Shown in pieces: positions 28,919 through 43,218 of a stretch of 64,000 nucleotides of DNA (positions within the stretch are counted from its first letter, which is position 1; every line of letters starts with the position of its first letter). The position numbers were made by a program, and so were the translations under genes. Origin of the DNA: a virus (lineage: Duplodnaviria > Caudoviricetes); the IMG/VR virus record IMGVR_UViG_3300032303_002590; one strand, written 5' to 3'. The notes under the pieces are model-generated. The model saw only the letters and a program-made list of their open reading frames with translations. It did not search any database and was not told the origin of the DNA.

Positions 28919-28944
28919 TTAAAAATTTCCTTATATAAAAAGTT

Positions 28945-28974
28945 AGGCTCCGTAAGGAGCCTTTCGTATATTTA
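28945..28974 (+). promoter_or_regulatory. hairpin plus early promoter
   Basis: AGGCTCC-GTAA-GGAGCCT 28945-28962; core 28963. Confidence 0.78.
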
Positions 28975-28999
28975 AGTATAAAATTAAAAAAGAAAGGTT

Positions 29000-29425
29000 A
29001 TGTTATACAGTGTTTCAAATACTTGGAAATGTGGATTTATGGAAGATTACACGGCACATTCTAAAGGTGCATTAGAATTAGACCCAACTAATATTTTAAT
29101 TTCAATTGTTAGTCCCTTTAGATATGAAGTGAAATCATTACTAAAACCCGGTATAGCAATTCTACAAGGTAAAAAGTATATTACACCTGGATTCATGCCA
29201 TGTCATCCAAACACTGAATTAAGTGATATAAAATGGATCCCGAAAATATCAAAACAAGAACAAGTAAAAGAAATTGATACTTGGAGATTCAAATCATCTA
29301 GTGGAGATGGAGAATACGTTACTAAACGAAATGGGTTCAAATTCACTTGCAATTGCCCAGGTGTATGGAGAGCTAAGGATAGAGAATGTAAACATATAAA
29401 AGAAGTAAAGGGTTTGGTTAAGTAA
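29000..29425 (+). CDS. SWIM zinc-finger protein
   Basis: YVTK..FTCNCPG..ECKHI. Confidence 0.8.
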   Translation: MLYSVSNTWKCGFMEDYTAHSKGALELDPTNILISIVSPFRYEVKSLLKPGIAILQGKKYITPGFMPCHPNTELSDIKWIPKISKQEQVKEIDTWRFKSSSGDGEYVTKRNGFKFTCNCPGVWRAKDRECKHIKEVKGLVK

Positions 29426-29443
29426 GATTTTTTTCGTATATTA
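29414..29443 (+). promoter_or_regulatory. early promoter
   Basis: TTGGT 29414; core 29433. Confidence 0.72.
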
Positions 29444-29473
29444 TATTATATTAATAATTAAAATAATAATGTT

Positions 29474-29644
29474 ATGTTAAATAAAATTTACACATTAGAA
29501 AAAGAATATTTTTTAAACAATTACAAATATTTAATTCTAGAACATAAAGATGATTGTATTAAAATAATTTTAAACGATACTCAAGTAGATTTATTTTATT
29601 ATGGTCCAAGAATTGCTTACCATTTTATTCATATATTAAATTAA
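29474..29644 (+). CDS. hypothetical protein, 56 aa (not in ORF track)
   Basis: GTTATG start after promoter; MLNKIYTLEKEY. Confidence 0.55.
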   Translation: MLNKIYTLEKEYFLNNYKYLILEHKDDCIKIILNDTQVDLFYYGPRIAYHFIHILN

Positions 29645-29654
29645 TATAAATGTT

Positions 29655-30020
29655 ATGGAAAAGAAAATAGAACGTAGAGGTAGAATAGCTGAGAATGATA
29701 CTCTTATTTTACAATATACACAAGAATTTAAAGAACATACTGGTGAAACATTCACTTGGGAATGGGATAAAACCAAATTCCCTAATGGTCCACTTTCAGT
29801 TGAAATAAAAGACCCACAATGGGCTCAATATGATAAGAAAGAAAAACAACTAGTTGAATTATTAGCTAAATATGAATTTAAAAAAGGTGAACGTAAACCA
29901 CGTGTTACTAAAGTTGATAAAGAATTAATTGAACAACTAGAACATGAAATGGATGAAATATTTTATTCATTTTACCCCGAAGACCGACCTAAACAACGTA
30001 AATCCAGAAAAACCAAATAG
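29655..30020 (+). CDS. hypothetical protein
   Basis: 121-aa ORF, GTTATG start. Confidence 0.7.
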   Translation: MEKKIERRGRIAENDTLILQYTQEFKEHTGETFTWEWDKTKFPNGPLSVEIKDPQWAQYDKKEKQLVELLAKYEFKKGERKPRVTKVDKELIEQLEHEMDEIFYSFYPEDRPKQRKSRKTK

Positions 30021-30329
30021 ATGAAAGTAAAAAAATTAACTTTAAAGGACACAGACGAAGTAATAGATTATACTGAAAACAATCCTGATATTATTTATAC
30101 TCAAACCTATGATATATTAAATCATACTTGGAAGAAGAGTAAAAAAATATCAATGGTTGATCTATTTATTATCACTTTAACTGATGATGAAGAAATGGAT
30201 GAAGTTGTATTAACAGTTAATTCTGATGAATGGGAACCTGCTTTAGAAATGGCATTAGTATATTTTGAAGAAGTAGAAAATTATGAAATGTGTTCAAGTA
30301 TTCAAAAATTATTAGAAACTATAAATTAA
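30021..30329 (+). CDS. acidic protein with C-terminal UVR-like motif
   Basis: ALVYFEEVENYEMCSSIQKLL. Confidence 0.68.
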   Translation: MKVKKLTLKDTDEVIDYTENNPDIIYTQTYDILNHTWKKSKKISMVDLFIITLTDDEEMDEVVLTVNSDEWEPALEMALVYFEEVENYEMCSSIQKLLETIN

Positions 30330-30336
30330 ATTAAAA

Positions 30337-30540
30337 ATGAGTTATTTTCAAGCAACAGTAGAAATCATTGATTTCACAGACAAAGGTAAACAAATTAAAA
30401 TGAGAGAACAGTATTTAGTAGATGCAGTTTCTGTTACAGAAGCAGAAGTAAAAATTACTAAATTATTTGAATCCGAAGGTGGGCAAGCAGATTTTCAAGT
30501 TAAAATTGTTAAGGAAACAAAAATATTGCAGGTAATATAA
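30337..30540 (+). CDS. DUF4494-like protein
   Basis: EQYLVDAVSVTEAE motif. Confidence 0.72.
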   Translation: MSYFQATVEIIDFTDKGKQIKMREQYLVDAVSVTEAEVKITKLFESEGGQADFQVKIVKETKILQVI

Positions 30541-30577
30541 TCACCCACTCCTATATATATCCCTCCATATATACGCC

Positions 30578-30790
30578 ATGAAACAATTATTCAAATTTAA
30601 CGATAAACTCTATGTTGTAGTACGTAACGTACCTACCCACAACTTTGAAAACAAAGATGGGAGTATAAACATGGAGGTACTTAAAACATGGAGGGATCAT
30701 GTAGGGTGTGATCACGTTATAAAACATAATGATCATTATTTATTAGTACAAACAATACAAGAAGCAGAAATAGATGAAAACAGTAATTAA
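30578..30790 (+). CDS. hypothetical protein
   Basis: 70-aa ORF overlapping thioredoxin start. Confidence 0.65.
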   Translation: MKQLFKFNDKLYVVVRNVPTHNFENKDGSINMEVLKTWRDHVGCDHVIKHNDHYLLVQTIQEAEIDENSN

Positions 30791-31025
30791 ATACGGAGCT
30801 GCATGGTGTGGACCATGTAAAATGTATGCTCCAACATTCAATAAAGTAGCAAGTGAAGTTCCGGGAGTATCATTTCAATCAATAGATGTAGATTCGGGTG
30901 ATCCAAGAATAATTGAACACGGAGTTAGAAACGTTCCAACTACAGTTGTAGTAGAAAATGGAGTTGTTATTAACCGTCAAAGTGGAAACATGAGCGCAGA
31001 TCAATTAAAAGCGCTAATAGGGTAA
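30774..31025 (+). CDS. thioredoxin
   Basis: WCGPC active site, VPT cis-Pro. Confidence 0.92.
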   Translation: MKTVIKYGAAWCGPCKMYAPTFNKVASEVPGVSFQSIDVDSGDPRIIEHGVRNVPTTVVVENGVVINRQSGNMSADQLKALIG

Positions 31026-31032
31026 TATTTAT
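31025..31032 (+). promoter_or_regulatory. putative late promoter ATATTTAT
   Basis: intergenic motif copy. Confidence 0.55.
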
Positions 31033-31049
31033 TACCACAGTATGAATTC

Positions 31050-32291
31050 ATGGCAAAATTAAAAGACGTATTACCTCAAATACCCAAAGACGAATTAGCG
31101 ATTCTAAGAACGTTAAATCAAGAATTATCTAAAGAATTAACAGAAGCATCTACTAAAGATGTTGCTCAAGCTGTTAAAACTATCGTTTCAGGATGGAAAG
31201 GATGGAGTAAAGCAATGTTGTTAGCTTTAATGCTAACACCAAATATTGCTACTGCCTTAGAGACTTATTCACCTTCAACTTATAATGACATTCAAACTGA
31301 AATATCAGCAACTGATAATAAAGCAGCTCAACCAACAGCTCAAGTACCTGGAGCAATTAAAACAATAAGTTTTGGAGAAAATTTTCCGAGTGGGAAAGCA
31401 ACTCTAGTTAATAAAGATAATTTAATTCAGAAAGTTACAGAAATGAAGAACTTTTTGAATGGTAAGGATGCTTCTAAATTTAAAGTTGTAATTGAAGCAG
31501 GTGAATCTCAAGTAACTAATCCTAAAGGGTATGAAAAGAAAAGTGCAAATGACGCTCCACTAGCACGAGCAAGAGCACAGGCAGTTGAAGATGTAATTAA
31601 AGGGTTAGGGTTTAATAATATTGATATTCAAACTAAGGTAGGTACAACACCCTACAAGCCAGGAAATAACCCAGCCGATGAGAATTATACAAGAGAACAA
31701 TTCGTTACTATAAACATTATAGCAGATAATGATATCTGTAATATGGATGATGTTGATAAAAATGAAGGTCAAGGAGTAGCTTCAAATGATTATGTAACTT
31801 ATGATGATTATATTAGTGGTGTAGGAGAATTGATATTAGATACTGGTACAATACCTGATAGAATGGTTGTATTGGATGCAAACGGCAATATAAAACAGGA
31901 TACAGGGTATATAACTACTAAAAAAAGTAAATATCCACAATGGGAATATACTCCAGCATATGTACTAGCATTAACAAAGGCTTATTTAGCTAAAAGTCCA
32001 TCAATGAAGGGTATTGATCCCCAAACTGTAATAACTGTAACAGATTATGATGATTTAGTAAAACAAATATCAAATACTGCTAAACCGGATGTTATTGGAG
32101 ATGAAATAGGGCCGGCATTAAATCAAATGAGGAAAATGATTCAGAAAGGGCAAAAACAATTTGTTATATATACTAATGGAGCCTCTCCATCAAAATTAAA
32201 ATTTGATCAAAATAAAGGAGAAGTTCAAGCTAAAGTTTATTCACCTGTAGGTAAAACAGGATATAAGATAACAGGTAGTTGTAAAAGATAA
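31050..32291 (+). CDS. OmpA-C-like (peptidoglycan-binding) domain protein
   Basis: FPSGKATL..IEAGES..LARARAQAV..QFVTINI; hydrophobic segment near aa 52-70. Confidence 0.6.
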   Translation: MAKLKDVLPQIPKDELAILRTLNQELSKELTEASTKDVAQAVKTIVSGWKGWSKAMLLALMLTPNIATALETYSPSTYNDIQTEISATDNKAAQPTAQVPGAIKTISFGENFPSGKATLVNKDNLIQKVTEMKNFLNGKDASKFKVVIEAGESQVTNPKGYEKKSANDAPLARARAQAVEDVIKGLGFNNIDIQTKVGTTPYKPGNNPADENYTREQFVTINIIADNDICNMDDVDKNEGQGVASNDYVTYDDYISGVGELILDTGTIPDRMVVLDANGNIKQDTGYITTKKSKYPQWEYTPAYVLALTKAYLAKSPSMKGIDPQTVITVTDYDDLVKQISNTAKPDVIGDEIGPALNQMRKMIQKGQKQFVIYTNGASPSKLKFDQNKGEVQAKVYSPVGKTGYKITGSCKR

Positions 32292-32314
32292 TCTTAATAA
32301 AATATTTTTGTTAG

Positions 32315-32350
32315 AAGGTTTGCTTATGCAAACCTTTTTTCGTATATTAA
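32315..32350 (+). promoter_or_regulatory. terminator hairpin plus early promoter
   Basis: AAGGTTTGC-TTAT-GCAAACCTT plus T-tract; core 32339. Confidence 0.78.
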
Positions 32351-32370
32351 AGTATAAAAATGAAGAAGTT

Positions 32371-32802
32371 ATGAAAAAGTTATTAGTAATGCTGTTATTT
32401 AGTACAGCAATGTTTTCCCAAACAATTAAAGTAAGAGGTGTTACTTTATCTTATGATAAAGTTCATAAAACAATGATCTTAACCATTCCAGAAAAACTAA
32501 TGAGAGTTTATGATATAGGTAATGAGGTAAAAGTTATGATAAACAAACAATATAGTTTACGTATGATTATAAATGGAATGGATGTAGCAACATATTCAGA
32601 ATACTTTTTACATCAAGGGCATTCTTATGAAAATATGTGGATGTTTTCTACAATTCAACCTGATAATTGTATAGAGGTGAAAAAAAATTATGTGTATAAA
32701 TTTACTAATGTGCAACCCAATGAATATATTTTACAGGTAAGTAATATTTGTGATAATAAATGGGAAAGTAATCAACAGAATTATTCAATTATAATAAATT
32801 AA
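32371..32802 (+). CDS. secreted hypothetical protein
   Basis: start moved to 32371: MKKLLVMLLFSTAMFSQ signal peptide. Confidence 0.72.
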   Translation: MKKLLVMLLFSTAMFSQTIKVRGVTLSYDKVHKTMILTIPEKLMRVYDIGNEVKVMINKQYSLRMIINGMDVATYSEYFLHQGHSYENMWMFSTIQPDNCIEVKKNYVYKFTNVQPNEYILQVSNICDNKWESNQQNYSIIIN

Positions 32803-32803
32803 T

Positions 32804-32926
32804 ATGGTACATGTAATAGTAGGATCAATAGCATTAGGGTGTGTTTTAGGAGGATTCATAATAGGTTTTGGATTAATATTTGAAAATTTAATAAAAAAAA
32901 TTAAAAATGACCGAAAAAACAGGTAA
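32804..32926 (+). CDS. small membrane peptide, 40 aa (not in ORF track)
   Basis: MVHVIVGSIALGCVLGGFIIGFGLIF plus basic tail. Confidence 0.55.
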   Translation: MVHVIVGSIALGCVLGGFIIGFGLIFENLIKKIKNDRKNR

Positions 32927-33176
32927 TACTGAAAAACTAAATTATGATTTTAATACCGCTTCTAATTTGGAAGTGTTTATGATCAATTTAGATGATTGGT
33001 ATCGAGTTACTTCAAGAGAATTTCGTTCATTCAACGGAAAACGACGTATAAACAACGTTGATTATAACGGACCAATATACCATTATGCTACAAATAGACG
33101 TGCTAATAAATCGCTGTTTCCTAAAGGAAAAATAGTAGAGCATAACTGGGTAAGTAAAAGAAGACCTAACGATTAG
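32907..33176 (+). CDS. hypothetical protein
   Basis: 89-aa ORF (WYRVTSREFRSF). Confidence 0.68.
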   Translation: MTEKTGNTEKLNYDFNTASNLEVFMINLDDWYRVTSREFRSFNGKRRINNVDYNGPIYHYATNRRANKSLFPKGKIVEHNWVSKRRPND

Positions 33177-33177
33177 T

Positions 33178-33208
33178 TTGGATTTTGGAGAAAATTTTCG
33201 TATATTTA
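33178..33208 (+). promoter_or_regulatory. early promoter
   Basis: TTGGA 33178; core 33197. Confidence 0.78.
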
Positions 33209-33230
33209 AGTATAAAAAGAAATTAAGGTT

Positions 33231-33467
33231 ATGGAAGAACAAGGGATTATTTTAGAACGAGCAACATTTGAATTCTCACAAGATGGGAATTGTATATCAA
33301 GCTCAGATCAATACGAATCTTTAACAATTGAATGTGAATCATCTTTAGGAATTGATAGAGATGAAGGATGTTTTTATGTTTTGAAAACAGAAAAGTGGTC
33401 AATTGAAGACGAACAAGATTTAAAAAAATTATTTGATAGAATAAGAAAAGTAATAACAAATAAATAA
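33231..33467 (+). CDS. hypothetical protein
   Basis: GGTTATG start after promoter. Confidence 0.7.
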   Translation: MEEQGIILERATFEFSQDGNCISSSDQYESLTIECESSLGIDRDEGCFYVLKTEKWSIEDEQDLKKLFDRIRKVITNK

Positions 33468-33471
33468 AAAA

Positions 33472-33669
33472 ATGAATAAATTAACAATTCTAGGATCAGC
33501 TATTGGGGTGTTATTAGTAACAGCAGTTATTTTAGCTTGGCCTACACAATTATTATGGAATTATTGTTTAGTAGGAGCAGTAAATGGAATTAATCCAATA
33601 GGATTTTGGCAAGCATTAGGAATTACGTTTTTATTTAACATATTATTTAAACCAACAAGTAATAAATAA
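33472..33669 (+). CDS. small membrane protein
   Basis: two hydrophobic segments, IGFWQALG. Confidence 0.68.
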   Translation: MNKLTILGSAIGVLLVTAVILAWPTQLLWNYCLVGAVNGINPIGFWQALGITFLFNILFKPTSNK

Positions 33670-33851
33670 TGGCTGAAAAATATTATCAAGTTGTGTTAAC
33701 CAATGGTAAAACACATACATCAATATATAGAACTATACCTAATGCTATTAAAAATGTAGGTGTAAGTAATATAAAAAAGATTGTTGAGTTAAGAAAAGAA
33801 TTAGTTGAAACTAAGTATTTAGAACAAGTAGGAACACAAAACATAGAATAA
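33669..33851 (+). CDS. hypothetical protein
   Basis: TAATG-coupled. Confidence 0.6.
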   Translation: MAEKYYQVVLTNGKTHTSIYRTIPNAIKNVGVSNIKKIVELRKELVETKYLEQVGTQNIE

Positions 33852-34060
33852 TGCAATTTAGTTTTAAAGGTAAAACATATAGAATGGATGAATCGTATTG
33901 GAAAGGAGATATGCTCAACACATCACCTGAATTTCAGTATGAGCAATTAATTTATTGTATTCAAATAGGTGATTTTAAAACCTTAGAAAATAGAATTACA
34001 AATATGTTAAAATGGGGTGGATTATTAGAAGTAACAAATAAAAATAAAGAAAATGAGTAA
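33851..34060 (+). CDS. hypothetical protein
   Basis: TAATG-coupled. Confidence 0.62.
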   Translation: MQFSFKGKTYRMDESYWKGDMLNTSPEFQYEQLIYCIQIGDFKTLENRITNMLKWGGLLEVTNKNKENE

Positions 34061-34193
34061 GAATTCAGCAAAAAGCAACTACGAACAATTAATGGCTTGG
34101 TTACCAACATTAAATCAACCTAAAGCTAAGGTGGAACAATCAACTACTAAGTTTTCAAAGGCAGACCATTATAAGAAAAGTGGTGTAAAATAA
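34053..34193 (+). CDS. hypothetical protein, 46 aa (not in ORF track)
   Basis: MSKNSAKSNYEQLMAWLPTL fills gap to next promoter. Confidence 0.55.
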   Translation: MSKNSAKSNYEQLMAWLPTLNQPKAKVEQSTTKFSKADHYKKSGVK

Positions 34194-34194
34194 T

Positions 34195-34225
34195 TTGGAG
34201 ATTTAAGATTTTTTTCGTATATTTA
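34195..34225 (+). promoter_or_regulatory. early promoter
   Basis: TTGGA 34195; core 34214. Confidence 0.78.
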
Positions 34226-34253
34226 AGTATAGAAATTTAAAAACATAAAGGTT

Positions 34254-35048
34254 ATGAAAAGTTTAAAAGCATTATCAAGAGAGGAATTAAAATCATTAGC
34301 TCCTTCAATTTTCAATCACACAGTTGGTACAAAATTAACTGAAAAATATGTGCATATTCCAACAGATACAATTGTTGATGATATGGAAGCATTAGGATGG
34401 GTTCCTTATTCAGTAAAAACAGTTCGTTCTAGAGCTAAAAATGCTGCTACTAAGAAACATTTAGTACAGTTTTTTAATCCTGATATCGTTATTAATGACG
34501 AAAAGGGTGAAGCTGACATGTATCCGCAATTATTATTGATCAATTCACATGATGGTTCAACAGCTGTTAAATTTGAAATGGGTGTATTTCGTTTAGTATG
34601 TGAAAATGGTTTAGTTATTAAATCACAGGATTTTGGTGGTTTCAAAATGAGACATATGGGATATTCATTTGAGGATTTACGAGTGTATATTAATCAGTTA
34701 GTTGAAACATTACCAACTGTAGTTGCTAACTTAAACAAGTTTTCACAAGTTGAAATGACACCTGAACAACAATATGAGTTTGCTACTAAAGCAGTTGAAG
34801 CTCGTTTTGGTGAAGAAAAACAATTATCTTCAGATGAAATTGATAACTTACTTTCAGCTGAACGTAAAGAGGATCAAGGTAATTCAGTTTGGGTTGTTAT
34901 GAATCGTGTTCAAGAAAAGTTAACAAATGGTGGATTTAGTTACTTAAATGCTAAAGGTAAACCAAGAAAAGCGAGAGCTATTAAGAACTTTACTCAAGAC
35001 ATTGATTTTAATCAAAAGATTTGGTCATTGATTGAAGAATATGTTTAA
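34254..35048 (+). CDS. DUF932/DUF945 family protein
   Basis: LLLINSHDGS, GVFRLVCENGL, RH, NRVQE. Confidence 0.88.
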   Translation: MKSLKALSREELKSLAPSIFNHTVGTKLTEKYVHIPTDTIVDDMEALGWVPYSVKTVRSRAKNAATKKHLVQFFNPDIVINDEKGEADMYPQLLLINSHDGSTAVKFEMGVFRLVCENGLVIKSQDFGGFKMRHMGYSFEDLRVYINQLVETLPTVVANLNKFSQVEMTPEQQYEFATKAVEARFGEEKQLSSDEIDNLLSAERKEDQGNSVWVVMNRVQEKLTNGGFSYLNAKGKPRKARAIKNFTQDIDFNQKIWSLIEEYV

Positions 35049-35055
35049 AAGTACT

Positions 35056-35092
35056 AAGGAAGGGGATTTTATAATCCCCTTTCGTATATTTA
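35056..35092 (+). promoter_or_regulatory. hairpin plus early promoter
   Basis: AAGGA 35056; AAGGGGATT-TTAT-AATCCCCTT; core 35081. Confidence 0.78.
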
Positions 35093-35119
35093 TCCATAAT
35101 TAAAAAATGATATTTAAAA

Positions 35120-35269
35120 ATGGAACAAAATAAAGGAAATAATCGTAAGTTAGAAAAGGTTCAATTTTCAATGCAGGAAATTTGGGCTGCAAGTAAAACA
35201 AAAGTATTTAAGAATAAAAAGAAATATAACAGAAAGGACTCTAATAAGGGTCCTTTTTATATTTGTTAG
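35120..35269 (+). CDS. ArfA-like alternative ribosome-rescue factor candidate, 49 aa (not in ORF track)
   Basis: MEQNKGNNRKLEKVQFSMQEIWAASKTKVFKNKKKYNRKDSNKGPFYIC; basic VxKNKK..YxRK motif. Confidence 0.5.
   Translation: MEQNKGNNRKLEKVQFSMQEIWAASKTKVFKNKKKYNRKDSNKGPFYIC
35233..35264 (+). terminator. intrinsic terminator inside the 3' end of the 35120 ORF
   Basis: AAAGGACTCT-AATA-AGGGTCCTTT then T-rich tract, upstream of TAG 35267. Confidence 0.72.
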
Positions 35270-35297
35270 GAGATTTAAAAAATCTTTCGTATATTTA
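35267..35297 (+). promoter_or_regulatory. early promoter
   Basis: TAGGA 35267; core 35286. Confidence 0.75.
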
Positions 35298-35319
35298 AGT
35301 ATAATAAGAAATTAAGGTT

Positions 35320-35517
35320 ATGGAAAATAAAGAAGATAATTTTTACAAAGACGTAAAAGAAACAGGTAAAGTATTAATAATTTCAGCAATTATATACTTT
35401 TTTATTAAGTGGTTAAATGCAAGACCTATTAGATGGGTTTGGTTTATAGCAATATGTACAGTATTGTATTTTATTTCAAAAAATACAGGTTATCAATATC
35501 AAATTTTAGAACCATAA
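35320..35517 (+). CDS. small two-TM membrane protein
   Basis: two hydrophobic segments; GGTTATG start. Confidence 0.68.
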   Translation: MENKEDNFYKDVKETGKVLIISAIIYFFIKWLNARPIRWVWFIAICTVLYFISKNTGYQYQILEP

Positions 35518-35528
35518 AAAATTAAATT

Positions 35529-35648
35529 ATGTCACATCCAACAACACAGGAATTTTTAGAGTATTGGACAGAGTTTTATATGAATCAAGGAATTGATTTA
35601 GAGAGAGCAATTGAGTTAGCAGAGAAGGAATTAGATAAGTGGGATTAA
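35529..35648 (+). CDS. small acidic protein, 39 aa (not in ORF track)
   Basis: MSHPTTQEFLEYWTEFY. Confidence 0.55.
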   Translation: MSHPTTQEFLEYWTEFYMNQGIDLERAIELAEKELDKWD

Positions 35649-35661
35649 TTTCGTATATTTA
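35625..35661 (+). promoter_or_regulatory. early promoter
   Basis: AAGGAA 35625; core 35650. Confidence 0.75.
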
Positions 35662-35687
35662 AGTATAAATTTAAAAAATAAAAGGTT

Positions 35688-36428
35688 ATGACAAATCAAT
35701 TAGAATTAGAATTAGGGGTATTAACAGATGTTCAACAAGAACGTGTTAACAGTTTTGTAAAATCTCAAAAATCAGAGGTTGAAAAATTAATTAGTCTTCA
35801 AACTAAAATTGAAGGATTATTAATTAGTGGGGGTTTTAAAGCAGGTATTGACTATATTAATGATTTAGAATATAGTATGGTTAATGAATATAGAAATTTT
35901 GGTTATAGAGAAGATGCATTTACTTCTAATGTAACTTATATGAAATCTTCAGGTGGTTGTAAAATTATATTTAAAAGATATAATAAAAGTTCAAATAAAA
36001 TTGAAGTTAATAAATCAATGGTATATAATGAACATAATAAATTAGAATGTTCAGCTATTACTCCACAGTATAGAGCTTACTTACCATCTTCATTATTTGA
36101 TAAATTATTAGAGAATAATAATAAAGCACAACTTGATTATAATAGTGCTAATCGTGAAAAAACAGTTATTAACTATACTATTGACAAATATAAAATATTA
36201 TTTCCTAATGCTACTGTTAATGTAAGTAATGATTATAGTAAAAATTATAAAGGTAATTATACTGAATTTCCAATTATAACTGTAACATTTGAAAATGGTT
36301 CATATGTTAGTTTTAGATTAGGTTATGAAAATGATAAAGAATTTGTTCATAAGAAATTTGATGCAATTGCTTCAAAATTAACAGCAATTGAATTGTTAAA
36401 TGTATTTAATGATCAAAATATTAAGTAA
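35688..36428 (+). CDS. hypothetical early protein
   Basis: 246-aa cassette ORF. Confidence 0.75.
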   Translation: MTNQLELELGVLTDVQQERVNSFVKSQKSEVEKLISLQTKIEGLLISGGFKAGIDYINDLEYSMVNEYRNFGYREDAFTSNVTYMKSSGGCKIIFKRYNKSSNKIEVNKSMVYNEHNKLECSAITPQYRAYLPSSLFDKLLENNNKAQLDYNSANREKTVINYTIDKYKILFPNATVNVSNDYSKNYKGNYTEFPIITVTFENGSYVSFRLGYENDKEFVHKKFDAIASKLTAIELLNVFNDQNIK

Positions 36429-36430
36429 TT

Positions 36431-36467
36431 AAGGAAGGGGTTTTTAAAACCCCTTTTCGTATATTTA
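36431..36467 (+). promoter_or_regulatory. hairpin plus early promoter
   Basis: AAGGAA 36431; AAGGGGTTTT/AAAACCCCTT; core 36456. Confidence 0.78.
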
Positions 36468-36490
36468 AGTATAATTAAAAAATTAAAATT

Positions 36491-36940
36491 ATGACAAGAT
36501 TATTTAGAGATGTAGATTATTACATCGTACAAGCTTCTAATAGCACACAAAGAGAATTTGAATTAGACTTTGCAGACATCATAGAAGTATATGATGAACA
36601 TGAAACAGAGCTTACTACTGAGTGTGGGAGAACGTTAATCATTCATTGGTATTCAAACGGCTATTATCAAAGTTATCAAGTAATCTATGAGACTGAACAA
36701 ATGTCTAATAGAGTTGACAGAGAGATGATATTAAAGGTTATTGATTTACTTCGGACAATAGAGGTAGATGGAGAAACAATGCAATACATTCTAAACAAGG
36801 TAGGAATGGAAGATCAAATGTTAAGACAATTAATAATGTCTCAACCAATTGAAGAGGTAAGATATTTGATTGAAGAAAGAGAAGAATTAGAAGAGGAATT
36901 TGAATATGAAGGTGATATAGAAGATTTACAAGGGAATTAA
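36491..36940 (+). CDS. acidic hypothetical early protein
   Basis: 149-aa cassette ORF. Confidence 0.72.
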   Translation: MTRLFRDVDYYIVQASNSTQREFELDFADIIEVYDEHETELTTECGRTLIIHWYSNGYYQSYQVIYETEQMSNRVDREMILKVIDLLRTIEVDGETMQYILNKVGMEDQMLRQLIMSQPIEEVRYLIEEREELEEEFEYEGDIEDLQGN

Positions 36941-36967
36941 ATAATCAAATTTAATTTCGTATATTTA
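36931..36967 (+). promoter_or_regulatory. early promoter
   Basis: AGGGAA 36931; core 36956. Confidence 0.75.
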
Positions 36968-37004
36968 AGTATAAGAAAAATTAATAATTTAAAAAATAAA
37001 GGTT

Positions 37005-37316
37005 ATGTGTAAAAAAACAACTCAAAGTGCAAACGGAACATCATTCCACAGTACAACAATTAATGCAAGTGTTAATCAATTAATCAATACTTTTGGTGAA
37101 CCTACCAATCAATATAATACAGGTGAAGATAAAGTAAATTTTGAATGGGTATTAGAAACTGATGAAGGTGATGTATTTACCTTATATGATTGGAAAGAAG
37201 GTCGTCCATTAAGTTCAGATGAAACTATTGAATGGCATATTGGTTCACATTCAAGAGATATTTCAGGTGAAGCTCAATATGAAGTGATGAGAGAATTAGG
37301 TAATTATGTTGAGTAA
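37005..37316 (+). CDS. hypothetical early protein
   Basis: FGEP..DKVNFEW..FTLYDWK..WHIG phage motif. Confidence 0.75.
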   Translation: MCKKTTQSANGTSFHSTTINASVNQLINTFGEPTNQYNTGEDKVNFEWVLETDEGDVFTLYDWKEGRPLSSDETIEWHIGSHSRDISGEAQYEVMRELGNYVE

Positions 37317-37351
37317 GGAATAAGATTTTTAAAATATCTTTCGTATATTTA
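37315..37351 (+). promoter_or_regulatory. early promoter
   Basis: AAGGAA 37315; core 37340. Confidence 0.75.
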
Positions 37352-37377
37352 GGTATCAATAATTAAAAAAGAAAATT

Positions 37378-37653
37378 ATGTCATATAATGAAGTTTTTAG
37401 AAAGAATGCACGTGATTTAGAGGAAGAAAAACAAAACACCTTCCCTTCATGTATCAGTATTATAGAAAAGTTTATTCAAAGTGAAATTGATAAAAACACA
37501 GCATCTAATGAATATATTCTAGCATTAAATGAATGTACAACATTAGAGGACTTGGTTTATGAAGTTGATATGTGGAAAGTTCCTAATGTAATAAAAAATT
37601 ATGGTAGTGTTGCTAATTATATTTTAATGAGTTTAGATAAGGAATATGATTAA
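37378..37653 (+). CDS. hypothetical early protein
   Basis: cassette ORF. Confidence 0.7.
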   Translation: MSYNEVFRKNARDLEEEKQNTFPSCISIIEKFIQSEIDKNTASNEYILALNECTTLEDLVYEVDMWKVPNVIKNYGSVANYILMSLDKEYD

Positions 37654-37675
37654 TAAATAAAAGTTCGTATATTTA
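37639..37675 (+). promoter_or_regulatory. early promoter
   Basis: AAGGAA 37639; core 37664. Confidence 0.75.
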
Positions 37676-37714
37676 ATTATAAGAAAAATTAATAATTTAA
37701 AACAAAAAAAGGTT

Positions 37715-38092
37715 ATGAAAGTTACAAAAGAAAATGCAATCGCTTCAGTTCAAAATTCAGTTAGTTCTATCTTTTCAAAAGATGATGTGTTATTCCTTCT
37801 TAATTCAGTAGAAGTAGGTTCTAGTAGAAAAATTACTACTGAGGATATTGAAAGAGCGATTGATAAAACTATTAATTGGATTGATAATAATGAAAGAGAG
37901 ATAGTTGATTTAGATTCAGCTGAGTTTGAATTAACTTACAATAATCAAATTGAATGTGTTGGTGTTCCAATTAGTTCTGAAAGTATTAGAGAAGTATTAG
38001 AAAATAACTTCATGGATTTTGGTGAAACAGAAGATGAGGAGGAAGAAGAGTTTATTAGAATAACAGATGTAGTTGTTAATAACGAATTGTAG
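37715..38092 (+). CDS. acidic hypothetical early protein
   Basis: cassette ORF. Confidence 0.72.
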   Translation: MKVTKENAIASVQNSVSSIFSKDDVLFLLNSVEVGSSRKITTEDIERAIDKTINWIDNNEREIVDLDSAEFELTYNNQIECVGVPISSESIREVLENNFMDFGETEDEEEEEFIRITDVVVNNEL

Positions 38093-38103
38093 TAAATGAA
38101 TAG

Positions 38104-38134
38104 AGAGCGATTTTAATTAATCGCTCTTTTTTTT
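38104..38134 (+). terminator. intrinsic terminator
   Basis: AGAGCGATT/AATCGCTCT plus T-tract. Confidence 0.82.
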
Positions 38135-38137
38135 ATT

Positions 38138-38174
38138 AAGGAATAAGTTTTTTAAATTTAATTTCGTATATTTA
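38138..38174 (+). promoter_or_regulatory. early promoter
   Basis: AAGGAA 38138; core 38163. Confidence 0.75.
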
Positions 38175-38209
38175 AACGTTCAAGAGATATAAATTAAAAA
38201 AGAAAAGTT

Positions 38210-38410
38210 ATGGAATCAAATAAAAGAATTAGTGATGTAAGGGAATATTTTGATGTAAATTATTCTTATGTAGACATTGGAAGCATTTCAGATGAAGTTA
38301 TTTTAGATTACTTAAGTAATGGTTGGGTGTTAAATGTACCATTTGAAAGAAAAATGGACTTGTTATATGATTATATTTTAGCAAATGATTTAACTTATAT
38401 TAGTAGATAA
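38210..38410 (+). CDS. hypothetical early protein
   Basis: cassette ORF. Confidence 0.65.
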   Translation: MESNKRISDVREYFDVNYSYVDIGSISDEVILDYLSNGWVLNVPFERKMDLLYDYILANDLTYISR

Positions 38411-38445
38411 GGAATAAATTTTTTAATATAAATTTCGTATATTTA
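38409..38445 (+). promoter_or_regulatory. early promoter
   Basis: AAGGAA 38409; core 38434. Confidence 0.75.
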
Positions 38446-38469
38446 AGTATAATAATTAAAACAAATGTT

Positions 38470-38766
38470 ATGACTAAGAAAGAACAAAAAAACATTATTA
38501 CAAAACATGTAATTGAAGCAGTACAAAAGAATTTTAATGTAGTTGCAGATTTTAATGATGATGAAGGTCATGGTTATTTTACTTTTTCTATTGAAAGTGA
38601 AGGTAATGAATTTTTCTTTGATATGAGTAGAAATGATTTTTCTATTATATCTTATAAAGTTAGAGGTGAAAAATTATACAATGAAGCTCAACAATTAGAA
38701 CAGGAATTGGATGAGTTTATTGCAAATGAAATAGCAATTGTTGTTATAAATGAATTTTTTATTTAA
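38470..38766 (+). CDS. acidic hypothetical early protein
   Basis: cassette ORF. Confidence 0.68.
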   Translation: MTKKEQKNIITKHVIEAVQKNFNVVADFNDDEGHGYFTFSIESEGNEFFFDMSRNDFSIISYKVRGEKLYNEAQQLEQELDEFIANEIAIVVINEFFI

Positions 38767-38785
38767 AATAAATTTCGTATATTTA
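38749..38785 (+). promoter_or_regulatory. early promoter
   Basis: AATGAA 38749; core 38774. Confidence 0.72.
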
Positions 38786-38823
38786 ATCTGTAAGAAAGTT
38801 AAATAATTAAAAAAGAAAATGTT

Positions 38824-39120
38824 ATGAGTAAATTTAGAGAATTAAGAATGAATCCACCTAAATTAACAATTAAAGAAGGTGCGAGAGAAGTAATATTTAA
38901 AACTATTGATGCAATGTGTGATAATGTTCACTACATTACATTTAAGAAAAATGAAGAAGGTGACTTTAAAATGAATGGGAATGGTTTCTCACTTTCTAAT
39001 TGGCAAATGAAACATGAAAAACATGAAGTTGAATGGGAAGCAGATGAAAATATGTGGGGAGGAGTTATTGCAATGATTAATTCAGGAGTATCGGTAGTTG
39101 AATCAGTAATAAGTAGATAA
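38824..39120 (+). CDS. hypothetical early protein
   Basis: cassette ORF. Confidence 0.7.
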   Translation: MSKFRELRMNPPKLTIKEGAREVIFKTIDAMCDNVHYITFKKNEEGDFKMNGNGFSLSNWQMKHEKHEVEWEADENMWGGVIAMINSGVSVVESVISR

Positions 39121-39128
39121 ATTAAATA

Positions 39129-39165
39129 AAGGAAGGGAGTTTTTAACTCCCTTTTCGTATATTTA
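39129..39165 (+). promoter_or_regulatory. hairpin plus early promoter
   Basis: AAGGAA 39129; AAGGGAGTT/AACTCCCTT; core 39154. Confidence 0.78.
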
Positions 39166-39189
39166 AGTATAATTAAAAAGATAAAAATT

Positions 39190-39333
39190 ATGGAAAATTT
39201 AGACAGATTTTACGATTGGATGTTAAGAATGGGAAATGTACATTTAGCTGATAATGAGCAAATGTCAAAAGCATATGAAGCTATAGTGGAAAGTGATAAA
39301 CAAGTGAAAAATGTAATTTTAATAACTAAATAA
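39190..39333 (+). CDS. hypothetical protein, 47 aa (not in ORF track)
   Basis: MENLDRFYDWMLRMGNV after promoter. Confidence 0.6.
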   Translation: MENLDRFYDWMLRMGNVHLADNEQMSKAYEAIVESDKQVKNVILITK

Positions 39334-39335
39334 TT

Positions 39336-39581
39336 ATGATAAACTTAACTATTCAAGATCAAATAAATGGTTCAAACAAAACACAAATGTTAAGAGAAGC
39401 AATTGGTAAGGAATTCAGTGATAATTATAGTTCAACTAATCGAAGTATGTTAATTGATGTAAGCGAATGTGGTAATGTTTGTTATACTATGGAAATTATG
39501 AGTGAATATTCAAAAAATGAACCTAAATTAGGTATTTTTAAACAACCAAGTTGGTTGACTTGGAACGGAATGTTTTATTAA
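39336..39581 (+). CDS. hypothetical early protein
   Basis: 81-aa ORF. Confidence 0.65.
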   Translation: MINLTIQDQINGSNKTQMLREAIGKEFSDNYSSTNRSMLIDVSECGNVCYTMEIMSEYSKNEPKLGIFKQPSWLTWNGMFY

Positions 39582-39588
39582 AGTAAAG

Positions 39589-39625
39589 ATGGAAGGTGAT
39601 TTTAAATCACCTTTTCGTATATTTA
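39589..39625 (+). promoter_or_regulatory. hairpin plus early promoter
   Basis: ATGGAA 39589; AAGGTGATTT/AAATCACCTT; core 39614. Confidence 0.78.
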
Positions 39626-39649
39626 AGTATAATTAAAAAAATAAAAATT

Positions 39650-39862
39650 ATGAAATTTATAAAATTAACATCAGTGGACCAATCCTCAATTTTAATTAAT
39701 GTAAACCAAATAGGACATTTTTATCAAGTTGATGATAAAATGGAATATGGAAGAGTTACAGAAAAAAAACATACCAGAATAGGTGTAACAACACATAATA
39801 ATGGTGGTTTTAAAGTAATTGAAAGTGTAGAAAAAATACTTAAATTAATTAGTGAGAACTAA
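39650..39862 (+). CDS. hypothetical early protein (FlbD-like pattern)
   Basis: start moved to 39650: MKFIKLT..ILINVNQI..VIESVEKIL. Confidence 0.65.
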   Translation: MKFIKLTSVDQSSILINVNQIGHFYQVDDKMEYGRVTEKKHTRIGVTTHNNGGFKVIESVEKILKLISEN

Positions 39863-39897
39863 GGTATTTGAGAATTAAATAAAATTTCGTATATTTA
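39861..39897 (+). promoter_or_regulatory. early promoter
   Basis: AAGGTA 39861; core 39886. Confidence 0.75.
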
Positions 39898-39931
39898 ATC
39901 TGTAATAAGTTAATAATTAAAAAAGAAAATT

Positions 39932-40198
39932 ATGAAAATCGAATTAAACACAGAAGCAAGAGACAAAAGAATTAACCAAAACTATCATGATGCCTTAAAT
40001 AAGATATCTTCTTATGCTGAACAAGGTTTTGATTTAACAGAACATATCTTTCCAAAAGATATATATGAACAAGTAAGGACTAAAATTAGTGATCACATGT
40101 ATGCGTTTGATATTAAATTTGTCTGGGCGAGTATAGGTAATATGAATAGTATTGCTGTTGGGGACGGTCGTTTAATGAGATTTAAACTGTTAAATTAA
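39932..40198 (+). CDS. hypothetical early protein
   Basis: cassette ORF. Confidence 0.68.
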   Translation: MKIELNTEARDKRINQNYHDALNKISSYAEQGFDLTEHIFPKDIYEQVRTKISDHMYAFDIKFVWASIGNMNSIAVGDGRLMRFKLLN

Positions 40199-40233
40199 GG
40201 TATTTGAGAATTAAATTAAAGTTCGTATATTTC
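40197..40233 (+). promoter_or_regulatory. early promoter
   Basis: AAGGTA 40197; core 40222. Confidence 0.72.
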
Positions 40234-40270
40234 GAATGTTAAAAAGATAAATAATTAAAAAAGTAATGTT

Positions 40271-40438
40271 ATGAAAGAACAAATTTTAAATTTAGCAGAT
40301 GATTTATTTTTAGAAGATAATTCACCTAAAAGAGAGGCATTTATTAAAGAATTCGAAAGTGCAGTTGCATTAATGAGAGAAAATGATTTTGATCAATTTT
40401 ATGCTTTTGCAGATATTATAATGCAAAAATATAATTAA
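40271..40438 (+). CDS. hypothetical protein, 55 aa (not in ORF track)
   Basis: MKEQILNLADDLFLED, GTTATG start. Confidence 0.6.
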   Translation: MKEQILNLADDLFLEDNSPKREAFIKEFESAVALMRENDFDQFYAFADIIMQKYN

Positions 40439-40450
40439 AAAATAAATGTT

Positions 40451-40648
40451 ATGAAAGTATTTAAAATTATAACTAAGGTAAAATCAGTTAAAACTATTCA
40501 ATATATTGTTGAAGCAAACTCAATAGAGGAAGCAGAAATGTTAATAATTGAAGGTAATGAAAGAGGTGAAGGTGAAGAAGTTAAAGATAAAATAAAATGG
40601 GGAAGTGAGATTTTAACTAAAATCGAATTTATAGAGGAATTAGATTAA
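40451..40648 (+). CDS. hypothetical early protein
   Basis: VEANSIEEA motif. Confidence 0.68.
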   Translation: MKVFKIITKVKSVKTIQYIVEANSIEEAEMLIIEGNERGEGEEVKDKIKWGSEILTKIEFIEELD

Positions 40649-40670
40649 TTAAATTAATTTCGTATATTTA
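40634..40670 (+). promoter_or_regulatory. early promoter
   Basis: GAGGAA 40634; core 40659. Confidence 0.72.
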
Positions 40671-40707
40671 ACATGTAAAAAAGATATAATAATTAAAAAA
40701 GAAAAAT

Positions 40708-40950
40708 ATGTTAGTATTTAAAGAAAATGTTTATGGTTTTGTTTATGATTCAGTTGATGGTACTGTTACAAAGGTATATAAGGAACCTTTAAAGGAAAAA
40801 GAAATATTTTTAATAAATAATGTATTAGATAAAGATGTTTATTTATTTACAGATATTGAAGATTGTAATGACTGTTTTAATATTATTACTAAGGAAGATC
40901 TTGATAATGATGAGGAAGGTTTAAATAAGGTATTTGATTTTATAAATTAA
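40708..40950 (+). CDS. acidic hypothetical early protein
   Basis: cassette ORF. Confidence 0.65.
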   Translation: MLVFKENVYGFVYDSVDGTVTKVYKEPLKEKEIFLINNVLDKDVYLFTDIEDCNDCFNIITKEDLDNDEEGLNKVFDFIN

Positions 40951-40963
40951 TTTCGTATATTTA
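40927..40963 (+). promoter_or_regulatory. early promoter
   Basis: AAGGTA 40927; core 40952. Confidence 0.72.
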
Positions 40964-40996
40964 ATCTGTAATAAGATAATAATTAAAAAATAAGTT

Positions 40997-41323
40997 ATGA
41001 AAATACAATTTAAGGTTATCAATTTAGGTTTAAATGAATTTGGTGTTCAAGAATTAAATAATTATTATAAAGATAATATTAGTGAGAATTGGGTTCATAA
41101 ATTCAAATTAGGAGAAATTGTAGATAGTAACACAAAAATATTTAAACAAGAGAAATCATTTTTAAAATTGAAAGAAAATAACTATATTGGAAATTATAAT
41201 TGTACACAATATATTAAAGGTTCAGAATATGGTGGAGGTTATTTTTCAATTCAATTAAAACATATTAATTATAGAATAGTTAAATTAGAAATAATTGAGA
41301 AAGAGAATGAATTTGTTTTTTAA
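40997..41323 (+). CDS. hypothetical early protein
   Basis: cassette ORF. Confidence 0.65.
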   Translation: MKIQFKVINLGLNEFGVQELNNYYKDNISENWVHKFKLGEIVDSNTKIFKQEKSFLKLKENNYIGNYNCTQYIKGSEYGGGYFSIQLKHINYRIVKLEIIEKENEFVF

Positions 41324-41342
41324 AATACTTTTCGTATATTTA
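41306..41342 (+). promoter_or_regulatory. early promoter
   Basis: AATGAA 41306; core 41331. Confidence 0.72.
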
Positions 41343-41380
41343 ATCTGTAATTGAGTTAAATAATTAAAAGAAAAAAAGTT

Positions 41381-41638
41381 ATGAAAAATGTATTTGTTAT
41401 GTCCTTTGTTGATGATTTAGAAACTGTTAATAAGTTTGATGAATTTGGTTTTGTTTGTGGAATTGATGATTCGGTAAATGGTATTTGGTGTTGTGAAAGA
41501 GATTTAAGTTATTTAAGTGAAGAAGAAGTAATTAATTTTATTGAAAAAACATCTAAGGAATTGGACTATTTTGTTAATGTAAATGGTGAAAATTTTGATA
41601 AAGAAGATATTGAATTAATTAAAAATAAATTAAATTAA
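41381..41638 (+). CDS. acidic hypothetical early protein
   Basis: cassette ORF. Confidence 0.65.
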   Translation: MKNVFVMSFVDDLETVNKFDEFGFVCGIDDSVNGIWCCERDLSYLSEEEVINFIEKTSKELDYFVNVNGENFDKEDIELIKNKLN

Positions 41639-41642
41639 GGTT

Positions 41643-41834
41643 ATGAAGAAATTGAATAGTTTTGAAAGTTATTTAGTGATTGAAGGATTAAATAATTTAA
41701 AGGAGGAATATAAAAAAGATATAAGAAGAATTATTGAAGAAGGTAAAAATCCTTTAATGACTCAAGGTTATATAGAAATGGTGGTGGAAGAAACAATAAA
41801 TAAAATAAAACAACTGACACTAAAACAAAAATAA
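41643..41834 (+). CDS. hypothetical early protein
   Basis: GGTTATG start. Confidence 0.65.
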   Translation: MKKLNSFESYLVIEGLNNLKEEYKKDIRRIIEEGKNPLMTQGYIEMVVEETINKIKQLTLKQK

Positions 41835-42200
41835 AACTCAGTAAATAAATGATGGAAGATAAAGAAATATTATTAAGTGATTTAGTGGGGGAAAACTAAA
41901 TAAGTAATGTAAAAGAAATGTAGAGGTAATGTAGGGGAAGTGATTTCCCTATCTCTATTATAATGTGGAAAAAACATCCTATGAGGGAACGTATTTAGGA
42001 AAGATAATCCTAATATGAGTGAGGAATAGGATTGTATGTGGAAATGAGTAGTGGTGTGATGTGGTGGTTGGGAGGAAGGTACCGGTACTTTACCTATCCC
42101 AGGAAAACAATTCCTCCCCCCTAAAAAAGTATATACAAACCCTACCTCCAATTTCCAATTCCCTCAATAAAAGCAACGGTTTATAAAAAATATGTTGTAA
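41835..42200. other. non-coding block with a G-rich to C-rich switch at palindrome GTACCGGTAC (42079-42088); possible terminus/origin
   Basis: no credible ORF; hairpins such as TAGGGGAA-GTGA-TTTCCCTA 41932-41951. Confidence 0.5.
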
Positions 42201-42205
42201 AATGG

Positions 42206-42236
42206 TTGGAGTTTTAAAATATCTTTCGTATATTTA
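42206..42236 (+). promoter_or_regulatory. early promoter
   Basis: TTGGA 42206; core 42225. Confidence 0.78.
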
Positions 42237-42278
42237 ATATGTAAGAAAGTTAAATAATTAAAAGAAAAATAAAAGGTT

Positions 42279-42650
42279 ATGACAAAAGAACAATTTTTAA
42301 ACGGAACTGAATTTTATATTGGTAGAAAAAGTTACAAAGGAGCGGAAACATATTCCTACAATGCAAAAGACAATTATATGTCTAAACAAATCAGATCTTC
42401 TATTGATGAAAGAGTGGTATTAGAAGACTATGTTTGTAACGTAACAAAGATTGGTCGTGTAGGTTTTGTATGTATTACATTTGTAATGAAAAAGAAAGTA
42501 GTAGTTAAATATAAGTTTGAAGATTTGGTTGAATTTGAAGATCAAGGACCACAATATGATGGTGCGGGATTTAGTATTGAAGATAGAGAAGATGATGATG
42601 AAGAACAATCACACCACTGCGATGATCCATCTTGTAACTGTTCAATTTAG
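42279..42650 (+). CDS. hypothetical early protein with acidic, His/Cys-rich tail
   Basis: MTKEQFLNG..; ends DDDEEQSHHCDDPSCNCSI. Confidence 0.72.
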   Translation: MTKEQFLNGTEFYIGRKSYKGAETYSYNAKDNYMSKQIRSSIDERVVLEDYVCNVTKIGRVGFVCITFVMKKKVVVKYKFEDLVEFEDQGPQYDGAGFSIEDREDDDEEQSHHCDDPSCNCSI

Positions 42651-42695
42651 TAAAATTTGAAGGGGAGAATAGCTAACTCCCCAAGTATTAATCCA

Positions 42696-42766
42696 GACTA
42701 ATAGGCGTAATTGGAAAAACGCTCCGCAATGACGGAAGAGAGTGGGTTCGATTCCCACATTAGTCA
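42696..42766 (+). tRNA. tRNA-like RNA with non-canonical anticodon arm (no isotype assignable)
   Basis: acceptor GACTAAT/ATTAGTC, D-arm GCGT-AATTGGAAAA-ACGC, T-arm GTGGG-TTCGATT-CCCAC; anticodon arm only TCCG-CAATGA-CGGA. Confidence 0.68.
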
Positions 42767-42817
42767 CTATAGTGCTTCTCATAACCACTATTATTTTTTA
42801 ATTATTACAAGCCAGCC

Positions 42818-42838
42818 GCCCCACTATGTGGGGCTTTT
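42818..42838 (+). terminator. intrinsic terminator
   Basis: GCCCCAC-TAT-GTGGGGC-TTTT. Confidence 0.75.
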
Positions 42839-42980
42839 GGTGATTAATGGAGGATCCTCCCCATATAGCGCGCCTCATGGTGAAGGATGCTCTACGTTAT
42901 AGACGAAAGAGAAAGGATCCATGAGCAATGCTCAATGAATATCCCAACTTATTGAGCATCTGTTAGTTTGCGTGGTAAAT

Positions 42981-43011
42981 TTGGATACGCTAAAATAATT
43001 TCGTATATTTA
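42981..43011 (+). promoter_or_regulatory. early promoter
   Basis: TTGGA 42981; core 43000. Confidence 0.78.
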
Positions 43012-43035
43012 CATGTAATTAAAAAATGATATATT

Positions 43036-43218
43036 ATGAAAAAGTTTACAGTAGAAATTGGTCTTAGAAAACAAGCTAATAAAGCCTTAATCAATTCAAA
43101 TAAGTTAAAACATGTGTTTTATAATACCGGAACTACCTTTATTGTAAACAGTGAAGATTTAGGTGATTGTATTGATATATTAGATCGAAACATGATAAAA
43201 GTGAATTTGATTAGTTAA
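43036..43218 (+). CDS. hypothetical early protein
   Basis: cassette ORF. Confidence 0.62.
   Translation: MKKFTVEIGLRKQANKALINSNKLKHVFYNTGTTFIVNSEDLGDCIDILDRNMIKVNLIS

Follow-up and report, generated by a model that had tools for sequence, protein, structure and literature searches.

A 64,000-nucleotide stretch of DNA from a Flavobacterium-type phage of the Caudoviricetes (IMG/VR record IMGVR_UViG_3300032303_002590; the whole stretch is called the window here) carries a gene for a 49-residue protein with an intrinsic terminator inside its own reading frame. The gene belongs to a large family of small basic phage proteins, the in-frame terminator is conserved among its closest relatives, and a basic motif of the family resembles a segment of the ribosome rescue factor ArfA. 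We put at about an even chance that the product is an ArfA- or BrfA-like rescue peptide gated by trans-translation. The features on which the analysis rests are the following.

35058-35083, plus strand: terminator hairpin of the upstream DUF932 gene (11 pairs, 5 of them G-C, then GTATATTTAT), situated within the spacer of the small gene's promoter-like module.
35080-35099, plus strand: core TTTCGTATATTTATCCATAA of the promoter-like module, diverged from the repeated cassette motif at 3 of 20 positions and lying 21 nt upstream of the ATG.
35120-35269, plus strand: ORF of 49 aa from ATG to TAG, encoding MEQNKGNNRKLEKVQFSMQEIWAASKTKVFKNKKKYNRKDSNKGPFYIC, a member of the phage family of small basic proteins.
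35174-35236, plus strand: conserved core QEIWAASKTKVFKNKKKYNRK, residues 19-39, defined by family comparison.
35231-35258, plus strand: terminator hairpin inside the ORF, encoding R38-Y47, from the terminator scan, RNAfold and conservation in relatives.
35254-35266, plus strand: T-rich tract TTTTTATATTTGT, where transcripts are expected to end; it encodes the hydrophobic tail (P)FYIC.
35267-35273, plus strand: TAGGAGA, which contains the stop codon TAG (35267-35269) and serves as upstream element for the promoter module that follows; TTGGAGA at 34196 and at 42205 is comparable.
35285-35304, plus strand: core of the next promoter-like module, an exact consensus match in the motif scan, preceding a 65-aa gene (35320-35517).

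The 49-aa ORF that the first-pass annotation placed at 35120-35269 is present on the plus strand, running from ATG to TAG. A close search for its product retrieved 24 proteins of 32-73 aa, and a profile search of 1.84 billion representatives retrieved 243 clusters (50% identity) at E <= 0.001, nearly all of 35-80 aa; because of these homologues, the ORF is judged to be a real gene. The family consensus reads MK.I.vT.QEIW.A.RP.V.KNKKKY.RK.KHK, followed by a short polar tail, and in 101 of 146 family representatives Y.RK is immediately succeeded by x-K-H, which contains the dipeptide Lys-His. The window clade has lost the five residues that hold it, as seen when ...YNRKEKHNRKDPNKGPYLVC from a relative (L001) is set against ...YNRKDSNKGPFYIC from the window. 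More than 130 family loci were found in scans of IMG/VR. A survey of one genome per species across 185,579 prokaryote species returned only four matches, all in metagenome-assembled genomes of Bacteroidota, and the family is almost purely phage-borne, with hosts in that phylum. The only cultured carriers found were Flavobacterium phages of the immuto group. In Flavobacterium phage vB_FspM_immuto, the family member is gp147 (YP_010114536.1, "hypothetical protein"; L150:1501-1650, corresponding to NC_055915.1 67229-67378), and its hairpin likewise lies inside the ORF.

Several departures from this simple layout were seen among the relatives. On a 430-kb viral contig (L016:3001-3405, the same contig as L056, with P0162 similar), the family gene lacks a stop and continues in frame into lipoprotein-like sequence (…LSSLCLIVLFSGC…), giving a total of 134 aa; in two other loci (L004 and L006), a separate lipoprotein ORF directly follows the family gene. 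Gene order also varies. In the window, the upstream neighbor encodes a 264-aa DUF932 protein whose stop lies at 35046-35048, and the small gene comes after it with a promoter module of its own, in the manner of a mobile cassette. Related sequences (L031 and the P0008 contig), compared with window positions 34053-35269, have a different order: there, the end of a 46-aa gene overlaps the small gene, which lies ahead of the DUF932 gene. No family could be assigned to the remaining neighbors, and no tRNA or tmRNA genes were found in the window. An 8-codon upstream ORF (ATG ATA TTT AAA AAT GGA ACA AAA TAA; 35107-35133) extends in a different frame into the first codons of the 49-aa gene.

Searches of Pfam, PHROGs and the ESM Atlas returned no function for the window protein or its family, the hits being PHROGs of unknown function and "hypothetical protein" clusters, and no description of such a family was found in the literature. 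AlphaFold2, run on the family alignment, gave a mean pLDDT of 74.7, with values above 88 over residues 11-30, and modeled a single short helix (residues 18-25) with the rest of the chain extended. The missing Pfam or PHROG function and the one-helix model both favor the serious rival to the rescue reading: a small basic phage protein that binds nucleic acid or ribosomes in some other role, such as host take-over, anti-defence or modification of translation. On that account, the C-terminus would be irrelevant, loss of a stop ahead of a neighboring terminator would be tolerated, and the likeness to ArfA would be due to chance or to the composition of lysine-rich peptides. We consider this explanation rather unlikely, and the evidence that bears on it in either direction is given below as it arises.

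A terminator stem and T-tract ahead of the TAG had been claimed for this gene, and both were recovered. The terminator scan, which found four terminator-like sites in a 5-kb region where 0.9 were expected, places at 35231-35258 a hairpin of 12 pairs (4 of them G-C) with a loop of four nucleotides, followed by ATATTTGTTA. Its G+C core, GGACTCT/AGGGTCC, spans 35236-35253 around the loop AATA (35243-35246). RNAfold returned an 11-pair stem, and an 86-nt stretch folded at -21.7 kcal/mol (z = -4.6), a stability reached by none of 200 shuffles. Hairpin and T-tract together encode R38-C49. Since the T-tract ends at 35266 and the TAG occupies 35267-35269, the entire terminator, core and T-tract alike, precedes the stop. 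The margin is narrow in the window copy: the stop begins 13 nt past the G+C core, and for this reason some terminated transcripts could still include the TAG. A second small hairpin just past this point (35269-35290) was considered as a further terminator and rejected, since it forms the ordinary spacer of the promoter module that follows.

Conservation of this arrangement was examined among relatives. In the window clade, the hairpin and T-tract lie inside the ORF in all 11 loci. The stems read GGACTC/GGGTCC, GGACCC/GGGTCC, GGGATC/GATCCC, GGGGTC/GACTCC, AGAGGATC/GATCCTCT and GGACTC/GAGTCC, with changes on both sides that keep the pairing, and the peptides encoded by them vary (DSNKGP, DPNKGP, GSKDP, GSKDS, RGSMDP and DSNNKSP). 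Because the stems remain paired through compensatory substitutions while the peptide changes, selection acts on this hairpin as RNA. Beyond the hairpin the frame is unconstrained, with tails of 2-25 aa and stops 7-63 nt after the stem. For some family ORFs, the stop is the TAA within the following promoter motif ("...SYI*"), and members of another clade stay open past the ATG of the next gene. In three such loci (L069, L070 and L073; ~1579-1695), the family ORF has no stop until it has crossed its terminator, the promoter motif after it and the start codon of the gene downstream.

Further hairpins inside the ORF were found elsewhere in the family. A clade with ...KHKKKGSQQGPSFL, which includes immuto gp147, carries aagggctc/gggccctt and variants thereof; a clade with ...KHKKNGNQFGSHNYF carries atgggaacca/tggttcccat along with the compensatory variant atggcaacca/tggttgccat. 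A third group has agagctgc/gcggctct with the variant agagctgg/ccagctct, a hairpin built on the AWKS codons of sister genes whose normal stop (...KHKDAWKSEK*) comes directly before the promoter, and one locus carries aaggcttgg/ccaggcctt. Stems were compared in register from the loop outward, MAFFT having failed to align different hairpins in structural register. At least three unrelated types of in-ORF hairpin occur within the family. An in-ORF terminator is present in about a quarter of the family genes retrieved; about 75% have normal stops, and in four family lineages the terminator follows the stop. Because of these ordinary stops and late terminators, the non-stop design is not required across the family. 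The expectation that homologues keep the in-ORF terminator is thus borne out by all window-clade loci, by the compensatory changes and by the unrelated hairpins of other branches, but it fails for the roughly three-quarters of the family with an ordinary stop and for the four lineages with the terminator behind it. In members with an ordinary stop, the protein extends 6-11 aa past Y.RK, approximately to the point where the truncated product is predicted to end.

A quantitative comparison was made across unique plus-strand ORFs from all loci and the window. Among 123 family genes, a terminator lies inside the ORF in 26, after the stop in 6 and nowhere nearby in 91, with four more family genes, whose hairpin lies more than 75 nt before the stop, tallied as "none". 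Among 909 other ORFs, 11 have a terminator inside (mostly weak sites), 6 have one overlapping the stop and 58 have one after it. When only genes with a 3'-end terminator are counted, the terminator is inside the ORF in 26/32 family genes versus 11/75 other ORFs (Fisher p = 3e-10, with rows that are not phylogenetically independent). A poorly resolved tree built on 31 core columns required 10 state changes, compared with 22 for shuffled labels. The in-ORF state is present in both deep branches, and the well-supported branches of this weak tree are compatible with a single origin; it is because the hairpins are unrelated, and not because of the tree, that several origins are proposed. The preponderance of ordinary stops favors a protein with another role, as introduced above; that explanation leaves unaccounted for both the enrichment of in-ORF terminators and the emergence of unrelated hairpins in different branches. 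Outside the family, a 318-kb phage contig was seen to carry an unrelated 47-aa ORF (…NNNNPHKRGGF; L007:5799-5942) with a strong terminator (ccctcacaaacgtggggg + TTTTT) just before its stop.

The genomic setting of the small gene is an array of cassettes. Between 28.9 and 44.7 kb, the window consists of small plus-strand genes, each behind a copy of a shared motif. With up to 3 mismatches allowed, the motif TTTCGTATATTTAAGTATAA occurs 15 times on the plus strand (0.12 expected), and its core TTCGTATATT occurs 32 times there at up to 1 mismatch. Some 30 plus-strand cassettes are spread over 28944-44706, with further ones at 8080 and 10370. Each is laid out as a GGAA or TTGGA element, a spacer of ~20 nt, the core TTCGTATATTTAAGTATAAT and an A-rich leader, often with AAGGTTATG at the start codon; the 49-aa gene is without this start context, which is found in most cassettes. 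The promoter of its own that had been proposed for the small gene corresponds to the promoter-like element at 35080-35099, which differs from the repeated motif at 3 of 20 positions. Terminators and promoters form compact units in which the hairpin of an upstream gene sits in the spacer of the next module (35058-35083, 36433-36457, ~39135-39153 and ~39596-39613). At all six other modules checked (28963, 32339, 35081, 36456, 39154 and 39614), the preceding ORF stops before the hairpin. With its TCGTA, the core is reminiscent of a CGT box described for ECF-type promoters in Flavobacterium psychrophilum (motif SM6, "-10 CGT"; PMC9723704), more so than of the Bacteroidota sigma-A box TAnnTTTG.

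This setting bears on two other uses for a terminator in frame. An intragenic terminator may be suppressed by a translating ribosome, which counts against the rescue reading. The hairpin could instead act as a translation-sensing attenuator: a closely following ribosome would melt it and let the next cassette be transcribed, slow translation would lead to termination, and the peptide would have a separate function. The position of the hairpin in translated sequence a few codons before the stop is in keeping with such a device, as are the relatives in which the ORF crosses the next promoter and the start of the next gene. We nevertheless consider an attenuator improbable. The core at 35285-35304 appears to drive the 65-aa gene downstream, and because that gene has its own full-consensus promoter module immediately after the terminator, read-through would add little. 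The conserved peptide and the stop-bearing relatives furthermore indicate that the protein is the purpose of the gene. The other possible use is as a decoy, in which an abundant non-stop mRNA would occupy tmRNA-SmpB and thereby disturb host quality control or tmRNA-dependent defences, with the peptide secondary. A decoy would be served by the cassette's own promoter-like module and by a terminator ahead of the stop; strong purifying selection on the peptide across the 243 clusters, most with normal stops, makes it very improbable. As for a basic protein with some other function, a strong cassette yielding a product destined for tmRNA tagging would be wasteful unless selected, which that explanation does not address.

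Likeness to ArfA was assessed at the level of the protein sequence. The first-pass annotation had called the product ArfA-like and quoted a motif of Escherichia coli ArfA, which is correct when compared with the K-12 record. A blind profile search with 122 family members against 177,635 distinct PDB sequences returned E. coli ArfA (5u4i_w) as the best match, a borderline one at E = 0.01 and 18.6 bits that took 6 of the top 10 rows. The family segment "r.nVhKNKK---kYtRKkkhknk" aligns with ArfA 26-52, and the basic part of the window protein, KVFKNKKKYNRK, lies in the profile columns aligned with ArfA residues 26-42. The matched stretch of ArfA is the segment that it places in the mRNA channel (residues about 28-48), including Lys-His, a dipeptide that in both ArfA and BrfA contacts U534 of 16S rRNA there (PMC6881298, PMC8012679). 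In a local search with filters off, the family profile scored 14.7 bits against ArfA, a value reached by 0/5000 shuffles of the whole sequence and by 1/5000 shuffles of the basic segment alone.

Formal membership of the ArfA family was rejected. The Pfam ArfA model PF03889 (gathering score 25.5 bits) gave no match at E <= 10 for the window protein and 22 family members, nor in three phage records carrying the gene, whereas the same model gave 89.7 bits for E. coli. The family aligned by hhalign to the single E. coli ArfA sequence with a probability of 4.6% (P = 0.009). The RF2-binding part of ArfA (residues 15-31, with A18 and F25) showed no alignment upstream of ArfA R26, and Lys-His is lost in the window clade. 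What stands of the claimed likeness is the best match in the PDB profile search; it is confined to the basic segment, and the window protein falls outside PF03889 and lacks Lys-His. When ArfA was the query of a homology search, the matches listed were all close enterobacterial ArfAs, which are too uniform for a better profile-profile test. A PDB search with the window-clade profile alone gave no ArfA and instead matched nesprin-1 at E = 0.008, a match judged spurious; because of it, an E value near 0.01 counts as weak evidence. The short, borderline similarity and the existence of a comparable spurious match speak for a protein with another function, which in turn leaves unexplained why the top PDB match should come from the only protein family for which this design is known.

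Another Pfam model touches the same region. DUF7230 (PF23876) gave weak matches over the basic segment for 7 of the 22 family members, the best at E = 0.0026 and 18.3 bits (profile positions 17-37), and none of these matches reached its gathering score of 27 bits. The literature search found no mention of DUF7230, for which no function is known. A DUF7230 match elsewhere in a relative's genome (L022) was set aside as an unrelated membrane protein.

On the favored rescue reading, the product would be a small, basic, largely unstructured peptide working like ArfA or BrfA. In the window lineage and several others, the only intrinsic terminator of the unit lies within the reading frame, so most transcripts should lack a stop codon, with their 3' ends near 35260: the module at 35080 would start transcription and the T-tract would end it. 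Ribosomes would arrive at the 3' end with no stop to read, and tmRNA-SmpB would tag the nascent peptide for degradation as long as trans-translation has capacity. Once trans-translation is saturated, for example during infection when mRNAs are being cut, a peptide of about 46 residues would be released and accumulate. Its KNKKKY.RK segment, followed by.KH in most relatives, might then bind the vacant mRNA channel of ribosomes stalled on broken messages, and the conserved N-terminal strand and QEIW.A helix might recruit a host release factor, freeing the ribosome to the possible benefit of the phage. Family members with ordinary stops would be a constitutive version, like ArfT.

A broader proposal, which we hold more tentatively, is that phages of Bacteroidota own a release-factor-dependent family of rescue peptides, either very distantly related to ArfA or convergent with it in the mRNA-channel segment. 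Several lineages would independently have moved the terminator into the frame and so placed the peptide under tmRNA control, creating a viral rescue system that switches on just when cells fill with broken mRNAs as a result of infection or of host nuclease defences. That the gene counters such defences is pure speculation.

If correct, these proposals would add family-wide, phage-borne rescue factors to a phylum in which we know of no ArfA, BrfA or ArfT. Rescue factors of these types are hard to detect by homology. Reviews expect more alternative rescue factors to exist (PMC8012679). Repeated emergence of the in-ORF terminator within the family would argue, by comparison among lineages, that the design has been selected and did not arise by accident, and ribosome rescue would become something that phages manage as a resource in the course of infection. 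Peptides of the family are also potential probes for the mRNA channel of the unusual Bacteroidota ribosome. A cultured system is available in Flavobacterium sp. LMO8 with phage vB_FspM_immuto and its gene gp147.

Four known systems invite comparison. Gene g10 of Citromicrobium phage vB_CbaS-RXM is a phage gene named alternative ribosome-rescue factor A (PMC8953757). It is likened to ArfA by annotation alone, belongs to an alphaproteobacterial phage and has no described non-stop design. ArfT of Francisella tularensis, at ~40 aa with a basic C-terminal stretch, shares a short motif with ArfA but no further homology that could be detected (PMC6299226). Like most of the family described here, it has an ordinary stop, and no tmRNA gating of it is known. 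Unlike the family, ArfT is chromosomal, and its motif KKGGSTNKK, as quoted in PMC6299226, is absent from the family consensus.

ArfA (YhdL, PF03889; PDB 5U4I, 5MDV, 5H5U, 5MGP) belongs to E. coli and other gamma- and betaproteobacteria and, like the window protein, is small and basic. Its N-terminus, AIEALLHDPLF, is unrelated to the family's QEIW.A helix; its KGKGS loop is missing from the family and its Lys-His from the window protein. The family is also set apart by being phage-borne in Bacteroidota, with ordinary stops in most members, whereas arfA was found in 0 of 1,956 genomes of the FCB group (PMC11633108). The basic order V.KNKK..Y.RK.KH is common to both, with a 3-residue gap in the family opposite ArfA GKG. 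So are an in-ORF hairpin expected to yield a non-stop mRNA, a variable hydrophobic tail past the hairpin and a varying ORF length. The hallmark of ArfA, an mRNA truncated inside its ORF, has a sequence-level counterpart in the hairpin and T-tract before the stop and in the compensatory changes that maintain them.

BrfA (YqkK; PDB 6SZS) of Bacillus subtilis differs in its N-terminal helices, which bind h44, H69 and H71 and to which the family shows nothing comparable; the BrfA chain of 6SZS was absent from the PDB profile matches at E <= 10. Its basic C-terminal tail carries a Lys-His motif (PMC6881298), as does most of the family. A parallel lies in the gene itself: brfA has a canonical intrinsic terminator, rather than an RNase III site, in its coding region a few codons before the stop (PMC6881298), just as the window gene does. 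A terminator or hairpin within the ORF that generates a non-stop mRNA is a known regulatory design, established for both brfA and arfA (PMC6881298, PMC8012679).
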